Positions 3,429 to 64,000 of a stretch of 64,000 nucleotides of DNA are shown one piece after another; positions within the stretch are counted from its first letter, which is position 1; every line of letters begins with the position of its first letter. Source of the DNA: an uncultured Nitrososphaerales archaeon (GTDB lineage: Archaea > Thermoproteota > Nitrososphaeria > Nitrososphaerales > Nitrososphaeraceae); NCBI GenBank assembly GCA_963713605.1, contig CAVQMO010000015.1, positions 1 through 64,000 of the forward strand. Direction: 5' to 3'. The notes under the pieces are model-generated. The model ran no database searches. It was not told where the DNA came from and worked only from the letters and a program-made list of their open reading frames with translations. The position numbers and the translations under genes are program-made.

Positions 3429-4763
3429 ATGCGCCAAATCAAGCCAACTGCTATGTTTTTGGAGACTAATAGTAGCAAGAAACTTTTCATGCTTATGATA
3501 GTGGTGATAATTACCATCATAATTGATTCACAAATCGGTTATATCGCTGATTTCATTCCTGAGCAGCTGTCTTCAATTGCAGGGATAGTCACATTCATTA
3601 TTTTTGCAGTAATATTTGCGATAACACAATATCTTATTTTAGCTTTCGTAAGACACTCTAACATAGAAATGAGACAAAGAGCACCACATCTCCACATATT
3701 GCATACTGCGGTATCTGTTGCTCAATATGTACTTATAGTAGTGATGGCACTTGTTATTTTGCAAATTCTAATAGCACAGCAATATAACATCATAACTCTC
3801 TATATTACTTATGCCATAAGTTACGGACTTTGGATAGTAATATTAGGACTCTTAGCCAGAGCTTTTTTCACTTGGTACAAACTCTCTAATAAAAATATTA
3901 TTGTATTAATATTTACTTTATCTATGATCGCGTATGTGGTCAACGGAATATTGGGTCTGGCAGTATATTCTGACTTGCTGATGCAACAGAAGACTGTGAT
4001 AACATCTACTGATGTGGCGTACTTTCCTGAATTCAGTCTTGAAGAAGTTGGAAGTCAGATTGCAACAGCCAATCTCATAGCTTCTACCACGGCATATGTT
4101 CTCACTTGGATTGGCACAGTCAGGATGCTATATCCATATATCAAAAAATTGGGTAAGATCAAATTCTGGATTATTATGGGCGTAGTTATGGTCTACTATA
4201 TTATCTCTTCATACCCGCTATCTTTATTGGAATATTTTACTCCATCAACAGATGAAATAACAAATATTCTTATCTTTTCATTATCTGGAATTCTTTCAGG
4301 AATCATATTTGGAGCAGCATTCTTATCCGTGGCAAAAACTTTACGAAAAGACAGTAGTCTCAGAAAGCATATGATAATTGCAGCATATGGATTTGTTCTT
4401 TTTTATATTGCTGGGTCTGCAGCCGCCGCTCAGGCTGCTTATCCCCCATTTGGAATTGTCTCTATTTCGTTTATCGGATTATCTTGCTATTTGATATATG
4501 TAGGTCTATATTCAGCAGCAGTTACAGTTTCTCAGGATACGTCTTTACGTCTATCTATTAGAAAGTCATTAACTGAACAAGCAAAATTTCTACATAGTAT
4601 GGGGTCGGCTCAAATGGAACAAGAGCTACAATCAACGGTTATGAAGATCGCAAAGAAGCATTCGGATGTGTTGACAGAAAAGACTGGAGTTGAATCTTCA
4701 TTGACTGATAATGATATCAAAGAGTATATGTCAATGGTCTTGAATGAGATTCACAAGTCTTGA
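3429..4763 (+). CDS. 444-aa polytopic (~10 TM) membrane protein of unknown function, paralog A
   Basis: Repeated hydrophobic segments; motifs GKIKFW, AYGF, YPPFG, GLYS-AV-SQ shared with 25034..26368. Confidence 0.85.
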   Translation: MRQIKPTAMFLETNSSKKLFMLMIVVIITIIIDSQIGYIADFIPEQLSSIAGIVTFIIFAVIFAITQYLILAFVRHSNIEMRQRAPHLHILHTAVSVAQYVLIVVMALVILQILIAQQYNIITLYITYAISYGLWIVILGLLARAFFTWYKLSNKNIIVLIFTLSMIAYVVNGILGLAVYSDLLMQQKTVITSTDVAYFPEFSLEEVGSQIATANLIASTTAYVLTWIGTVRMLYPYIKKLGKIKFWIIMGVVMVYYIISSYPLSLLEYFTPSTDEITNILIFSLSGILSGIIFGAAFLSVAKTLRKDSSLRKHMIIAAYGFVLFYIAGSAAAAQAAYPPFGIVSISFIGLSCYLIYVGLYSAAVTVSQDTSLRLSIRKSLTEQAKFLHSMGSAQMEQELQSTVMKIAKKHSDVLTEKTGVESSLTDNDIKEYMSMVLNEIHKS

Positions 4764-24059: not shown

Positions 24060-24419
24060 TCATTTATTATTTTCCATTAAGAATTGAATTTTTTTATCTA
24101 ATTCGAGGATATTTTCATTCAATAGAATTAATCTGTTTAATAATTCATCATGACGCTCTGCAAAGTTTTCTATCTTCATCAAAACTTGTGTATTCTTTTG
24201 TTCTAAATCGCGTACACGTTGTAGAATATAATCTTGTTGGACCGTGGTCTTTTTCTGCCTGTCATAAATCCACCAACTTATGGCTACGCCGATACCGGCT
24301 CCTATGATTATGCTCAAGTAAGTACTTGAGGTGTTGGTCATGTCAATGCAGTCTTTAGCAAGCTCCGGTACGCATCCCCATATTACAAATACTGGCAGTA
24401 ATAACATGATATTGTGCAA
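24060..24419 (-). CDS. membrane-anchored coiled-coil hypothetical protein
   Basis: TM helix followed by heptad-like region. Confidence 0.65.
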   Translation of the reverse strand: MHNIMLLLPVFVIWGCVPELAKDCIDMTNTSSTYLSIIIGAGIGVAISWWIYDRQKKTTVQQDYILQRVRDLEQKNTQVLMKIENFAERHDELLNRLILLNENILELDKKIQFLMENNK

Positions 24420-25033: not shown

Positions 25034-26368
25034 ATGGTCAATCTTAAGACGATATTTTTTCCCTCGATAAGCAACAAACAAGCAACATTAGTAATCGTCA
25101 TCACAATTGCTTTCTTGATACCCGATACTATGATAGGCTATGTTTCAGATTTTCTAGTTCCTCAGACTACTTCTATCTGGGGTATTTCATTTTTTATTTT
25201 ATTTTCAATTGTATATACCATATCTCAACATCTACTACTTCGATTTGTATGGTTGAAAACAAAGGACATAAGATCAAAATCTTTTCTTTTTAACGGTTTG
25301 CTGAAAACTTTAATAGCATTCCAGTACACACTGTTCGCAATTCTGATAGTAATCATATATCAGATACTATTTATGTCACAATACTATACGACGTTCCTGG
25401 TTTGGTCAACTGGTATAAGTCTTTTACTGACTATTAGCATTCTTGGCATCCTCGCTAGGCAGTTGTTCTTGTGGTATAGATACTATAGAAAAGGTTCTTT
25501 TGTGATAATTTGCTATGCCTTGGCATTTGTCATTATGTCAATTACTTTCTTTCTTGCATTATTACTAGATATGTATGGATTCTCAAATAAGCAAAGTATA
25601 GTAACACCAAATTCAGAAGTTTTTTTCACCGACTATGATAATACCAATTGGTTACTACTTGTGATTCATTATATATATAATTACCTAGATCTAATTTCAT
25701 TCATTCTCATATGGGGAGCAAATGCACTGCTGCTCCTTCACTACCGCAAGAGATTAGGATTTGTAAAATTTTGGATAATAATTAGTCTTCCCTTGGTATA
25801 TTATTTGGGTACTTTTGTAGAGATGATGGGATTATACGAACCACAGTCTGATTCAGAGTTCTTTTTCTTCTATTTGTATAGCTCCCTTAACTCAACTGCA
25901 GGAGGACTAATGTTTGGAATGACATTCATAACTATAGCACGTAAGATTGACAATCAAAGGATAAAGGGATACATGACTCTTACAGCATATGGATTTATTC
26001 TTCTCTATATATCAAGCCAGATATCACTGGTGGCATCCTCCTACCCGCCATTTGGAATCACAACTCTATTCTTCTCAGGATTGTCGTCTTATCTATTGTT
26101 AATAGGACTGTACTCTACCGCAGTATCATTATCTCAACATGCCCAATTACGAAAGAAAATTAGAAACTCAATAGACGAACAACATTCTAGGCTAATAGAT
26201 GGCATTGGAATGTCTGAATTGCACAGAGAGATAGATAAGAAAATCGAGCCGTTAATCCAACGACATGCAGAACAGATGAATATGCAGACTAAGTTAGATT
26301 TAACAATTACTGAAGAAGAAGTAAAACAATATATGAATGAGATTTTGCGTGATCTTCACAAAGAATGA
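25034..26368 (+). CDS. 444-aa polytopic (~10 TM) membrane protein of unknown function, paralog B
   Basis: Co-linear motifs with 3429..4763; cytoplasmic tail ending EEEVKQYMNEILRDL. Confidence 0.85.
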   Translation: MVNLKTIFFPSISNKQATLVIVITIAFLIPDTMIGYVSDFLVPQTTSIWGISFFILFSIVYTISQHLLLRFVWLKTKDIRSKSFLFNGLLKTLIAFQYTLFAILIVIIYQILFMSQYYTTFLVWSTGISLLLTISILGILARQLFLWYRYYRKGSFVIICYALAFVIMSITFFLALLLDMYGFSNKQSIVTPNSEVFFTDYDNTNWLLLVIHYIYNYLDLISFILIWGANALLLLHYRKRLGFVKFWIIISLPLVYYLGTFVEMMGLYEPQSDSEFFFFYLYSSLNSTAGGLMFGMTFITIARKIDNQRIKGYMTLTAYGFILLYISSQISLVASSYPPFGITTLFFSGLSSYLLLIGLYSTAVSLSQHAQLRKKIRNSIDEQHSRLIDGIGMSELHREIDKKIEPLIQRHAEQMNMQTKLDLTITEEEVKQYMNEILRDLHKE

Positions 26369-26556
26369 TTATTTCATCCATAAATTATTTATATAAAAAA
26401 TAGACAAAACCCTTAATTTATTAATCGAATATGAAATTTGGTTTATATTATTATACTTGAATTCTAATTATCATTGAATATATATATACAGTCAACTTGA
26501 ATAGTCATAAACATTATTGACGAATGTAAAAGAGCCAGTACTAATAATCCCTAATA

Positions 26557-26736
26557 ATGTCAATAAGTATACTAAAATTAGGAACAACTGGGATAAAGGA
26601 CTCATTCAAATGGTTTGTAAGAGAACATGCTAGTGAGATTGCAATCGTTGGAGTAATGTTCGTGATAGGTGTTGGTATAGCATTACTAGCTACGGGAGAT
26701 ATCTCTGAAGCAATTGCTAGAATGGGGAGGAGGTAA
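26557..26736 (+). CDS. 59-aa secreted peptide precursor (predicted mature RMGRR; not in ORF track)
   Basis: MSISILKLGTTGIKDSFKWFVREHASEIAIVGVMFVIGVGIALLATGDISEAIA-RMGRR; h-region plus A-x-A site; T-rich tract downstream. Confidence 0.7.
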   Translation: MSISILKLGTTGIKDSFKWFVREHASEIAIVGVMFVIGVGIALLATGDISEAIARMGRR

Positions 26737-27067
26737 CTAAAGGTAATAAATTTGAATTTTTATTTTCAGCTTCATTGCAAATTTGAGAAATGCTGTCCTG
26801 TTGGGAAAGAGGCTTCTACTTTTGAGTTATTCTTGATGTAAGTGGACAAATTTAATAGCATCTTCTACTTCTGTTTAATTAATAAATAATACTACTCTAC
26901 ATAATATTCGATTTCTAAAATTAATAACTCAAATTTGTGGCTTTCCAGCTTACGAACTAGCACCGTTTACAACATAATTCTTTGAATAAGAAGTTCATAA
27001 ACAATTATGTAGCAACGAATTTTCGGGTCTATATTCAAATGTCGTAAACCATTCCTACTATGTTATT

Positions 27068-28079
27068 CTATGTCAATGCCGAATAAATCTTTGGAAGAGA
27101 TACATCATACCTGTAGCTTATATTCATGTGACCATCATCAAACTCTTCATAAAGATGCTTGATGTTCATCTTATCCAGTTTTGAGTGAAGCATTCTAGCG
27201 CCCCAATGAAGATTAAATTCATCTCGGGTGCCACAATCAATGAAAATAAGCTTGAGCTTTTTCAAATTCTCAACATAATTTTCTATCATTCTGACTGGAT
27301 CCCAAGCAAGCCATCGATTCCATACTTCTGGTAACATTTCACCTGTCTTTAGGTCGAAGGGTAAATCCACGCCCATTTCTTTTGATTTAGGATTTGGTGA
27401 ATAATGTGTCTGCCATTCCAAATGTATTCAAAGGTGGTCCATCGTTTTTTTGATGACGATTAGACTTCTTCCAGAAATTATTTAGCCACCTCTTGGGGCC
27501 TCCAGATCCCCTAAAAGGTTCAAGGGCTTTCGGAAAGTCTGGAGGATAACAGTATTCAAAACCAGCATCCCCAGAGTGATCTACAACACCTTGAAAGACA
27601 TCAGGATGACGCATACCCAAGACGATGGAACCATAGCCTCCAGAAGACTTTCCCCACACTGCATGAGCAGAAGTGTTGTAGTTTTTGTCTATAAATGGCA
27701 CAATCTCATCTATGATATAGTCTTCGTACCTACCTGTTGCCGAAGAATTGATGTACTGATTCCCACCAAATCTCGTAAAACAATCAAGCAAAACCAAGAT
27801 CATTGGACCACATTTTCTTTCTAAAATCAGGCGATTCATTCTATCTTCTATGTTTTCTGCAAATGGATCTACATTTAATAGCATCTTTCCTTTACCCCCG
27901 AATCCTACAAGACCGAAAGCTGCTATGTAACCTTTAGAATTACTTTGTGTATATTCTGGAGGAAGATAAACCAAAACATCTCTTACATAGGGATCTTTTA
28001 ATGGGTTAGTTTTGAGCACCCTGCTTGCATAGCTATGTGTAATTATCTTCCCTTTTGCCTTGCTTGTTAATCTAGCCAA
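27068..28079 (-). pseudogene. esterase (Fes/alpha-beta hydrolase), frameshift ~27410
   Basis: VYLPPEY, GKSSGGYG nucleophile elbow, DCGTRDEF, DDGH. Confidence 0.85.
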
Positions 28080-31011: not shown

Positions 31012-31926
31012 ATGATAAATAGTATTAAAGTGAATAGATGTATAACCGCAAAGACTTTTCCAACAATATTGGCTATATCATTACTATTGATATTAGTTAG
31101 CAATATAGTCGGTACACCAATCCTCTTTGAATATGCGTATGCAATCGAAGAATTCGATATAGATGTAGATGTTAAAGACAACGAGATTAAGCGTGGTGAT
31201 ACTCAACACATAACAGTTACTGTTTTCAACGATGATTCTGGTAATCATGTATCAGATGCAGATGTCAAATTAACAGTATATCCTCCAGATAGTGATTCAA
31301 CCTCGGCAGAGGATGAAACCGATAATGATGGCGAGGCAACATTTGATGTGGAAATAGATGATAATGCGGAAACAGGTAATTATGATGTGGACGTAAGAGT
31401 GTCAAAGGACGGATATGATACAAAAACTGTTAGTACATCGTTTGATGTTGTCGGGTCAGGTAATAACAACGACGACGATGATAATAATCATGATGGTAAT
31501 GGTAATGACTCATCATCTTCAGCTGCGGCATCAGCTTCTTCAGGAAGTAGTGGTGGCAGTAGCAGCGCAGCGTCAAGTGCTAGTTCCTCAGATAATGACC
31601 ATAATGACAATAATAATGACGGTGGCGGTAGTTCCTCCGCATCTTCTGCAGCTGTAGGAGATGCCGCATCAGCAGCGGCCTCTGCATCAGGTGCATCATC
31701 AGCCGCAGCAGCTGCAGCAGGTAATGCAGCTGCAGCAGCCGCCGCATCAGGTGATGATGCCTCTTCGGCAGCAGCAGCAGCAGTATCCGAGAATGGAGGA
31801 TCTTCGTCAGCTGCAGCAGCAGCAGCTGATGCGGCATCAGCGGCAGCAGCTTCTTCTAGTAACGATGAGGATGGCGATGATAAGGGAAGTTCGTCCTCGT
31901 CAGCATCTTCTTCAAGCAATGATTAG
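31012..31926 (+). CDS. secreted protein: acidic Ig-like domain plus poly-Ala/Ser repeat tail
   Basis: Signal ending AYA; TDNDGEATF..G.Y.V.V.VSKDGY beta-sandwich; Ala/Ser repeats. Confidence 0.85.
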   Translation: MINSIKVNRCITAKTFPTILAISLLLILVSNIVGTPILFEYAYAIEEFDIDVDVKDNEIKRGDTQHITVTVFNDDSGNHVSDADVKLTVYPPDSDSTSAEDETDNDGEATFDVEIDDNAETGNYDVDVRVSKDGYDTKTVSTSFDVVGSGNNNDDDDNNHDGNGNDSSSSAAASASSGSSGGSSSAASSASSSDNDHNDNNNDGGGSSSASSAAVGDAASAAASASGASSAAAAAAGNAAAAAAASGDDASSAAAAAVSENGGSSSAAAAAADAASAAAASSSNDEDGDDKGSSSSSASSSSND

Positions 31927-36814: not shown

Positions 36815-37165
36815 ATGAATAGAAGTATACCGGTAATTTTAGCTGTAGTCGTAATTACAGCAATGATAGGAGTTAATGTATCCTTAGAACAAGCATTTGC
36901 ATCTGCTTCCGCATCTGCTGCAGCAAGTGGCGGATCAGCGGCAGCGGCAGCGGCGGCAGGGGATAGTTCGGCAGCAGCGGCAGCAAGTGGCGGATCAGCG
37001 GCAGCAGCGGCAGCGGCGGCAGGGGATAGTTCGGCAGCAGCGGCAGCAAGTGGCGGATCAGCGGCAGCAGCAGCAGCATCATCAGATGATGATGACGATC
37101 ATCATCGTCATCATCATTATGACTGTGACGATGATGATGACTGTGATGACGAGGACGACGATTAA
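36815..37165 (+). CDS. secreted poly-Ala/Ser repeat protein with His/Asp/Cys tail
   Basis: Signal ending AFA; (SGGSAAAAAAAGDSSAAAAA)n; tail DDDDDHHRHHHYDCDDDDDCDD. Confidence 0.85.
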   Translation: MNRSIPVILAVVVITAMIGVNVSLEQAFASASASAAASGGSAAAAAAAGDSSAAAAASGGSAAAAAAAAGDSSAAAAASGGSAAAAAASSDDDDDHHRHHHYDCDDDDDCDDEDDD

Positions 37166-50062: not shown

Positions 50063-51048
50063 ATCAAATAAATACAACAAGAACGATACTAGCAGTAATA
50101 ATCGCGGTAGCATTAGTAGTATCGGTAGGTAGTTTAACCGCACTGTACACTTTTCCAGCGGATGCAACAAAACCAAAGCACAATGACGATGATGATGATA
50201 ATGGTAGTGGTAACAGTAACGTAGTTAACACGCTCCCACAGCAACCACAATTAGCACCGTTAAGTATGGAAACCGCTGCCTAATACTGGAGGTAACGTTG
50301 AGAGTGATGACATAGCTACATTGCAACAACAAGCCCAACCACAACCACAGCAAACAACCACACACAACAAGCAGCATCAACAAACGCAGCATGTGGACAA
50401 GTGGTAAGCGGAGTAGTAAATCTAACTGCAAATCTTAACTGCAATAGTGGAGATGGTATCATAGTAGGTGGTCCAAACACAGTAATTAACATGAATGGAT
50501 TCTCAATCACAGGACCTGGACAGGACAGCTCTAAAGTTGGGATTATGGTACCAAATGTTGATAATGTAGTAGTAAATGGACCTGGTTCACTCAGCAACTT
50601 CCAAGCAGGAGTACTTCTTACTGGAGCAAATGGATTTACGATTAATTCTGTCATACTATCTAACAACCAGATAGGTACATTTATGACAGGAGCTGAAAAT
50701 GCACAAGTAAAACAAAACATTATACAGGGTAATAGTATAGGTGTAGCATCTCACTCAAGTACAGGTGGTGCTATAGACTCAAACCTTATGAATGGCAACT
50801 TGCTAGCAGGAATAACATTTGTCAACACACAACAGTCCAGTGTAGGAATGAACAATGTAGTTGGAAGTCAGAATGGAGTATTTCTAGATGGACAGAGCAA
50901 ACAGAATACAATATCAGCAAATAACGTACTTGAGAATGTAATTGACCTTAACAATGCAAATGGACTACCAACAAACATCAACGCAAACCAATATGTGGAC
51001 AACAGCTGTCAGACAAGTAATCCAAGTGGTCTGTGTATAGGAAGGTAA
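50059..51048 (+). CDS. secreted right-handed parallel beta-helix (NosD/pectin-lyase-like) protein; N-terminal linker frameshifted
   Basis: Signal peptide ORF 50059..50283, Gln-rich linker in shifted frame, N/G-rich beta-helix repeats. Confidence 0.85.
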
Positions 51049-51136
51049 TAAGGAATAACAGGTAACAGCAAGTAACAATCCAACTCACTTTTTTCTTTTC
51101 CGCCAAATCCATTAAGGATATTTCAATTCTATAATG

Positions 51137-63308: not shown

Positions 63309-63420
63309 TCTTAAGTTTTAGTTTCATTCTATTTTATAAATATGAACACGAACGTAAGTCGAGTTACATAAAAGAAAAAAAGTGAGTCGGATGTTACTTG
63401 CTGTTGCCTGTGATTCCTTA

Positions 63421-64000
63421 TTACCTTCCTATACACAGACCACTTGGATTACTTGTCTGACAACTGTTGTCCACATATTGATTTGCGTTGATGTTTGTTG
63501 GTAGTCCGTTTGCATTGTTAAGGTCAATTACATTCTCAATTAAGTTATTTGCTGATATTGTATTCTGTTTGCTCTGTCCATCTAGAAATACTCCATTCTG
63601 ACTTCCAACTACATTGTTCATTCCTACACTGGACTGTTGTGTGTTGACAAATGTTATACCTGCTAGCAAGTTGCCATTCATAAGGTTTGAGTCTATAGCA
63701 CCACCTGTACTTGAGTGAGATGCTACACCTATACTATTACCCTGTATGATGTTTTGTTTTACTTGTGCATTTTCAGCTCCTGTCATAAATGTACCTATCT
63801 GGTTGTTAGATAGTATGACAGAATTAATCGTAAATCCATTTGCTCCAGTAAGAAGTACTCCTGCTTGGAAGTTGCTGAGTGAACCAGGTCCATTTACTAC
63901 TACATTATCAACATTGGTTACCATAATCCCAACTTTAGAGCTGTCCTGTCCAGGTCCTGTGATTGAGAATCCATTCATGTTAATTACTGTGTTTGGACCA
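63421..64000 (-). CDS. second, near-identical beta-helix protein (5' end outside window)
   Basis: Differs from 50401..51048 at only 3 visible residues. Confidence 0.9.
   Translation of the reverse strand, partial: GPNTVINMNGFSITGPGQDSSKVGIMVTNVDNVVVNGPGSLSNFQAGVLLTGANGFTINSVILSNNQIGTFMTGAENAQVKQNIIQGNSIGVASHSSTGGAIDSNLMNGNLLAGITFVNTQQSSVGMNNVVGSQNGVFLDGQSKQNTISANNLIENVIDLNNANGLPTNINANQYVDNSCQTSNPSGLCIGR

Follow-up and report, generated by a model that had tools for sequence, protein, structure and literature searches.

A Conserved Gene Pair for a Seven-Helix Membrane Protein and a Signal-Peptide Precursor, a Likely Peptide Signal and Receptor of Soil Ammonia-Oxidizing Archaea

Gene Content of the Locus

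The window, the whole stretch of 64,000 nucleotides from an uncultured Nitrososphaerales archaeon that was analysed, contains a gene for a 444-aa membrane protein (positions 25034-26368) and, separated from it by a gap of 188 bp, a 59-aa ORF (26557-26736); both are located on the + strand, as are paralog A and the other features of this locus given below unless stated, and both are present as described in the first-pass annotation of this DNA. Named homologues place the window in Nitrososphaeraceae. Neither protein matched any of the Pfam and NCBIfam families searched. The larger protein, here referred to as the receptor candidate, has 10 predicted membrane helices followed by a cytoplasmic helical tail, and the charges of its loops agree with 10 crossings in an N-in/C-in orientation. 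The helices form an N-terminal three-helix module (residues 14-114; 25073-25375), which was barely covered by the fold search, and a seven-helix module (residues 119-376; 25388-26161) with a predicted GPCR/rhodopsin-type fold in an N-out/C-in orientation. The top 50 rows of the 7TM fold search were GPCRs, rhodopsins and other 7TM proteins. A large segment of this module, residues 177-216 (25562-25681), is predicted to be an extracellular loop and has a net charge of -3 in the window protein.

The cytoplasmic helical tail (26162-26365) corresponds to a region that runs into a histidine kinase in fused paralogs, and fusions to HisKA and HATPase domains were identified in 5 of the 10 long receptor homologues scanned. 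Receiver-domain genes were somewhat enriched near members of the family, with such a gene within 1.1 kb at 10 of 71 receptor-family loci versus 32 of 856 in the genome G000, a comparison that is partly circular. Another member of the family, paralog A, is 29% identical to the receptor candidate and is located at 3429-4763. Paralog A had been noted to have no visible peptide gene, and we confirmed that no peptide-like ORF is seen within 1.5 kb of it. Many of the receptor paralogs in G000 are frameshifted, which may be explained by assembly indels.

The 59-aa product of the small gene, hereafter the class 1 precursor, starts with a long and conserved n-region (residues 1-27; 26557-26637), in which M1, S2 and H24 are invariant. 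This is followed by a hydrophobic h-region, IAIVGVMFVIGVGIALLATG (residues 28-45; 26638-26691), a c-region, TGDISEAIA, with a signal peptidase -3/-1 pattern (26692-26718), and a basic, variable tail, RMGRR (26719-26733). The h-region, the c-region DISEAIA and the tail that had been read as parts of a signal-peptide precursor were all found in the translation, and so was the n-region, but the latter is unusually long (27 aa) and almost neutral beside the h-region, the signal peptide being judged here by sequence pattern. The conservation expected of the A-x-A site was seen as small residues at -3/-1 in all 21 aligned class 1 copies, all of which also keep G47. The stop codon comes 4-7 residues past the predicted cut site in each of the 21 copies, which among them carry 19 distinct tails.

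Pairwise dN/dS values of the small gene relative to the window ranged from 0.18 to 0.49 in 20 of 20 comparisons. The first-pass annotation had raised the possibility that the ORF is a truncated longer secreted gene, which can be dismissed since the position of the stop is kept across three genera. At the level of sequence comparison, these data demonstrate that the small gene is under selection and is conserved together with the receptor gene as a pair. In a single RNA study, contigs of two libraries span the small gene, their strand and level not being readable, and one low-depth contig shows 8 differences from the window in 272 nt, of which 6 fall within two tail codons (RHQRR).

Upstream of the small gene, at -40 to -27 relative to the ATG, is a conserved element, TTGACGAATGTAAA (26517-26530). 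The genes for a second type of precursor (class 2, below) have a TATA-like box at the matching position, and by analogy the element is likely to be a promoter or regulator site. Downstream, a T-rich tract with 12 T of 16 (26751-26766) does occur where a terminator-like tract had been pointed out and is a possible archaeal terminator; this role is unproven since a bacterial-type terminator scan gave no call at the tract and since the closest homologues do not retain it at a distance of up to 45 nt from the stop. In the window, the pair is flanked by an esterase and by a small gene in divergent orientation. The esterase (27068-28079, - strand) is split into two ORFs of 230 and 117 aa, where relatives have a single 336-aa ORF. 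A divergent gene for a single-helix membrane protein of 115-119 aa (24060-24419, - strand), the product of which had no family above cut-off, precedes the receptor and is conserved in this position among the closest relatives.

Distribution of the Gene Pair

Among 60 relatives, we identified 6 full-length homologues of the small gene, every one of which was located behind a receptor ortholog. The loci fetched with the receptor contained two types of precursors: class 1, downstream of the receptor, and class 2, directly upstream of it. The class 2 precursor consists of a signal peptide, a spacer rich in N-x-T/S, the motif G-x-[IV]-S and a variable tail, of which there are 28 distinct versions. 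Genes for a signal peptidase and for an oligosaccharyltransferase are both present in G000.

In a tree of 138 distinct receptors, the peptide-bearing receptors were all placed on one branch, with class 1 receptors nested among class 2 receptors. In a 54-row tree built from a hand-chosen subset, the split of this branch had a support of 95/82, while the class 1 receptor group was weakly supported (84/35). A precursor adjoined the receptor in 47 of the 48 loci of the branch, the 48th being cut by a contig end, and in 0 of the 53 loci outside it that had enough flank, as compared to a background of 7 flagged cases among 1141 other long ORFs in G000 under the same rules; these counts are descriptive since the rules postdate the sight of the peptides and the loci are kin. 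The enrichment of small ORFs near family members, by which the first-pass annotation proposed to judge the pairing, thus holds for one branch. Only the receptor-fetched loci L021-L170 were counted, which also included 20 loci outside the branch with too little flank, and L171-L210 were left out because they had been fetched by the peptide. An unpublished genome, G107, gave 4 of the 53 rows (L094, L124, L152 and possibly one further), on which no claim depends, as well as a few unscored rows.

A profile search for class 1 in 238 genomes yielded 15 places, of which 13 were full-length and located behind a receptor (13/13) and 2 were decayed remnants that lacked a receptor at up to 1.5 kb; because the 13 hits are essentially the sequences used to build the profile, the news from this search is limited to the lack of an intact orphan. 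For class 2, the receptor was adjacent in 29 of the top 30 loci, and the remaining locus was at a contig edge. We also inspected 40 weaker class 2 hits that were hand-picked from 287 matches. Here, the receptor was adjacent to 7 of the 13 that ended in G-x-I-S and a tail, and to none of the 27 that did not, 4 of which have <1 kb of downstream flank. Since the weaker hits are in part without a receptor, orphan peptides exist.

Within G000, there are four additional pairs, two of which are frameshifted in the assembly. The segments C5:153608-157415 and C6:30919-34251 each contain two class 2 peptide-receptor pairs with different tails, in divergent orientation on C5 and in tandem on C6. Many short N-x-T-rich secreted proteins in the same genome are unrelated to receptors.

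Other small secreted proteins were observed beside these two classes. A large family of 55-120 aa with a signal peptide and GNMT repeats occurs on many contigs of G000 and in L211-L250, and some of its members, including ones that contain Cys, bear orphan G-x-I-[SA] tails; these proteins are possible ligands for receptors without a neighbour. Small signal-peptide genes outside the class 1 and class 2 counts adjoin kinase-fused members (L047:2413-2637, L074:1042-1266 and L071:733-1062), being either divergent, with products ending in VGGSRR or VRGRR, or upstream. In one sub-branch of the class 2 receptors (L050, L104, L105, L118 and L138), the receptor gene is followed downstream by genes for MinD/ParA-type ATPases and, in two cases, by DUF6659 as well.

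Charge Co-variation of Tail and Receptor

We also examined whether the tail co-varies with the receptor, another check suggested at the outset. For this analysis, five outer segments were fixed from the model and their net charges were compared with that of the partner tail in 63 pairs. The charge of segment 177-216 was found to run opposite to that of the tail (rho -0.61). Independent contrasts yielded an r value of -0.50, with 20 of 28 contrasts opposite and a sign-flip p value of 0.002, or about 0.01 once the number of segments tried is allowed for. The effect was observed in class 2 alone (r -0.46, p 0.008) as well as in class 1 alone (r -0.61, p 0.02), and was weaker with the acidic clade removed (r -0.37, p 0.07). 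It was the same when the class 1 tail was counted from after GDxx (r -0.49).

The corresponding values for five inside segments ranged from -0.22 to +0.16. Segment 258-285 gave a raw correlation of opposite sign (+0.38), which was gone in the contrasts, and the charge of the precursor spacer had no opposite-charge relationship with the loop (rho +0.32).

Comparison with Known Signalling Systems

We compared the pair with Rap-Phr, AimR-AimP, AgrC, ComD and Ste2. In RRNPP systems such as Phr and arbitrium, a short gene for a signal-peptide precursor is located right behind the receptor gene and the C-terminal 5-7-mer differs between dialects, while the receptors are cytoplasmic TPR proteins that require import of the peptide. 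The layout in Rap-Phr, PlcR-PapR, NprR-NprX and AimR-AimP, with the precursor directly behind the receptor, is like that of the pair described here, but in place of a cytoplasmic protein of TPR repeats we find 10 predicted membrane helices and no Pfam or NCBIfam match. The analogy to Phr and arbitrium in the first-pass annotation is thus apt for the gene layout, whereas the closer functional analogy is with the membrane receptors AgrC/ComD and fungal Ste2. AgrC-AgrD, ComD-ComC and ComP-ComX likewise combine a membrane sensor, variable on its outer face, with an adjacent gene for a variable peptide. Their kinase output is shared with the fused paralogs, but HisKA and HATPase_c are absent from the window protein and present only in those paralogs. 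No dedicated processing gene (AgrB, ComAB or ComQ) was found at the window locus, none for processing or export was seen to recur beside the pairs, and AgrB had no match in G000 (87% complete).

The receptor candidate is 9% identical to Ste2, the fungal alpha-factor receptor (class D GPCR, PDB 7ad3), from which it differs by three additional N-terminal helices, by a gene that adjoins that of the putative ligand and by relatives that are fused to histidine kinases. A PDB sequence search with the receptor candidate gave no match at E <= 1. The model predicts the seven-helix bundle of GPCRs in their N-out/C-in orientation; the class motifs DRY, NPxxY and CWxP and the outer disulfide were not found in the protein, which has a single Cys at 160, and G-alpha had no match in G000 (87% complete). 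The retinal-binding lysine that microbial rhodopsins have in the middle of the last helix is also absent, with no lysine in residues 341-373. By model features, the nearest named cluster was HisKA_7TM (PF16927), with a value of 0.81 that serves as a lead only, and the PF16927 profile had no match in the receptor protein or in the 11 genomes searched. HisKA_7TM and E. coli DgcT and CdgI likewise have a seven-helix input domain before a signalling enzyme, and the passages considered mention no peptide gene partner for them. The pair is like Rap-Phr and AimR-AimP in layout, like AgrC and ComD in the position of the receptor and like Ste2 in fold, and departs from each in a defining feature.

A Candidate Peptide Signal and its Receptor

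The conserved 7TM-protein/signal-peptide gene pair of soil ammonia-oxidizing archaea is likely to encode a peptide signal and its receptor. In the specific version that we moderately favour, the 59-aa gene encodes a peptide signal that is secreted, and the 444-aa protein next to it, with its predicted seven-helix GPCR-like fold, is the cognate receptor. That the two form a ligand-receptor pair of some kind is considerably more probable, since this also takes in a longer or tethered ligand. The core of the peptide-pheromone/receptor interpretation offered by the first-pass annotation is supported by the 7TM fold, the kinase fusions and the co-variation of tail and loop charges; because the GDIS of the c-region matches the G-x-I-S of class 2, the ligand may be longer than the pentapeptide RMGRR or tethered.

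The precursor would insert N-in and be cleaved after A54 by signal peptidase I, so that RMGRR is freed outside. The basic peptide could then bind to the seven-helix module on its acidic outer face, where loop 177-216 would help to set the specificity, and the resulting change would pass to the cytoplasmic helical tail and on to two-component proteins, as in the paralogs fused to histidine kinases. The signal may report local density or kin, the weakest step in this scheme, which is suggested only by the many "dialects" of tails and receptors across and within genomes.

If instead the ligand is longer or tethered, binding would depend on a core common to both classes, G-x-I-S (here GDISEAIARMGRR), and the small protein would not diffuse but remain membrane-bound, acting as a regulatory subunit or as a tethered agonist or antagonist of the receptor of its own cell. 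We regard this as rather unlikely, although the match of GDIS to the class 2 motif G-x-[IV]-S and the nesting of class 1 receptors among those of class 2 speak for it. The c-region pattern was found once in G000 and is for this reason not a generic signal-peptide ending, some class 2 tails past G-x-I-S measure 3 residues (RKD, KRY, HDR), the long n-region is conserved, as is M34 within the helix, and the charge correlation is indifferent to where the class 1 tail is taken to begin. The -3/-1 pattern in 21 of 21 class 1 copies argues for cleavage, however, and class 2 precursors are likely released, since they have a soluble spacer behind a signal peptide that looks ordinary and in most cases ends in A-Q. 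It is improbable that the small protein serves as an accessory in the membrane with N-out/C-in topology, such as a folding or assembly partner, with the basic tail as a mere cytoplasmic anchor and a receptor that senses something else. Such a topology would suit a tail side no less positive than the N-terminal one, class 1 tails that are all basic and a conserved N-terminal MSI, but it leaves unexplained why charge correlates with the outer loop and not with the inner loops, and why class 2 tails on the sister branches, acidic to basic, come after a cleavable signal with an N-x-T spacer. A basic block directly after the cut was seen in 4 of 63 secreted proteins of G000 by a rough heuristic and is thus uncommon, which keeps these rivals alive.

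Toxin-immunity pairs, in which the small protein would be a secreted, archaeocin-like antagonist and the membrane protein its cognate immunity or neutralising protein, would also be expected to stay closely paired, to co-vary and to show a decayed small gene wherever the partner is absent. We consider this very improbable, as the released part would measure 4-7 residues, the partner family includes fusions to histidine kinases and mostly has no peptide gene, and genes for modification or export do not recur next to the pairs. Chance proximity of a spurious small ORF, or of the stump of a longer secreted gene, is scarcely credible and by sequence comparison already largely refuted: short secreted ORFs abound in the genome, and some of them start like the tail (ALATEDAFA|GGKKR), but the low dN/dS values, the fixed position of the stop and a synteny that extends over three genera despite changing flanks all speak for a real gene.

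Extending the ligand-receptor reading to the whole family, we see about even chances that the Nitrososphaeraceae have a diffusible peptide language of their own. It would comprise dozens of short peptides from secreted precursors, each with a cognate GPCR-fold receptor from a family that has hundreds of sub-families and signals through archaeal two-component proteins and not through G proteins, and orphan peptides would serve the receptors that have no neighbour.

Relation to Earlier Work

Archaeal cell-cell signalling has so far been almost undefined, and soil nitrification is driven by archaea of the host's kind. If true, a peptide language of this kind would be the prokaryotic equivalent of signalling through peptides and GPCRs, and archaea would have their first defined pair of a peptide signal and its receptor. 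The existence of a prokaryotic 7TM receptor that binds peptides would bear on the origin of peptide-GPCR signalling, in terms of shared ancestry versus convergence. Candidate ligands, which are short and cheap to synthesise, and candidate receptors have now been named in matched dialects, and density or kin signalling is therefore directly testable in soil-nitrifying archaea.

Folds of the GPCR-like 7TM type have been reported from bacteria and archaea in the portions considered here of PMC10760455 and PMC13581589, and the main texts of both have no mention of "Nitrosos". The fold alone may not be new, because the supplementary 7TM lists of PMC13581589 may include the receptor family. Excerpts of three further papers were relevant: the one on archaeal two-component systems describes no sensor of this kind (PMC5847659), the quorum-sensing candidates of marine ammonia oxidizers were found through homology to bacterial systems (PMC11442133), and the signal in Haloferax, the best-studied archaeal case, is a small molecule that is chemically unidentified (PMC12240190). 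Neither the receptor family nor an archaeal peptide-receptor pair was described in the literature searched, outside of which most subscription papers fall. Relative to this literature, it is the pairing of a 7TM receptor with peptide precursors that appears to be new.

Other Features of the Window

The first-pass annotation had also matched paralog A to a 26-nt loop. An exact copy of 26 nt of its coding sequence (2642-2667 = 3572-3597) does exist about 930 bp upstream on the same strand, between the inverted pair CCAAGTGG and CCACTTGG, but the minimum-energy fold of 2581-2730 did not display it as a clean loop. An inverted repeat of 609 nt with 98% identity (50469-51077 and 63392-64000), which continues past the end of the window, may represent two copies of a mobile element. 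Two Ala/Ser-rich repeat regions, at 31012-31926 and about 36900-37100, share units of 23-63 nt, and the former sits in a secreted-looking protein of 304 aa.
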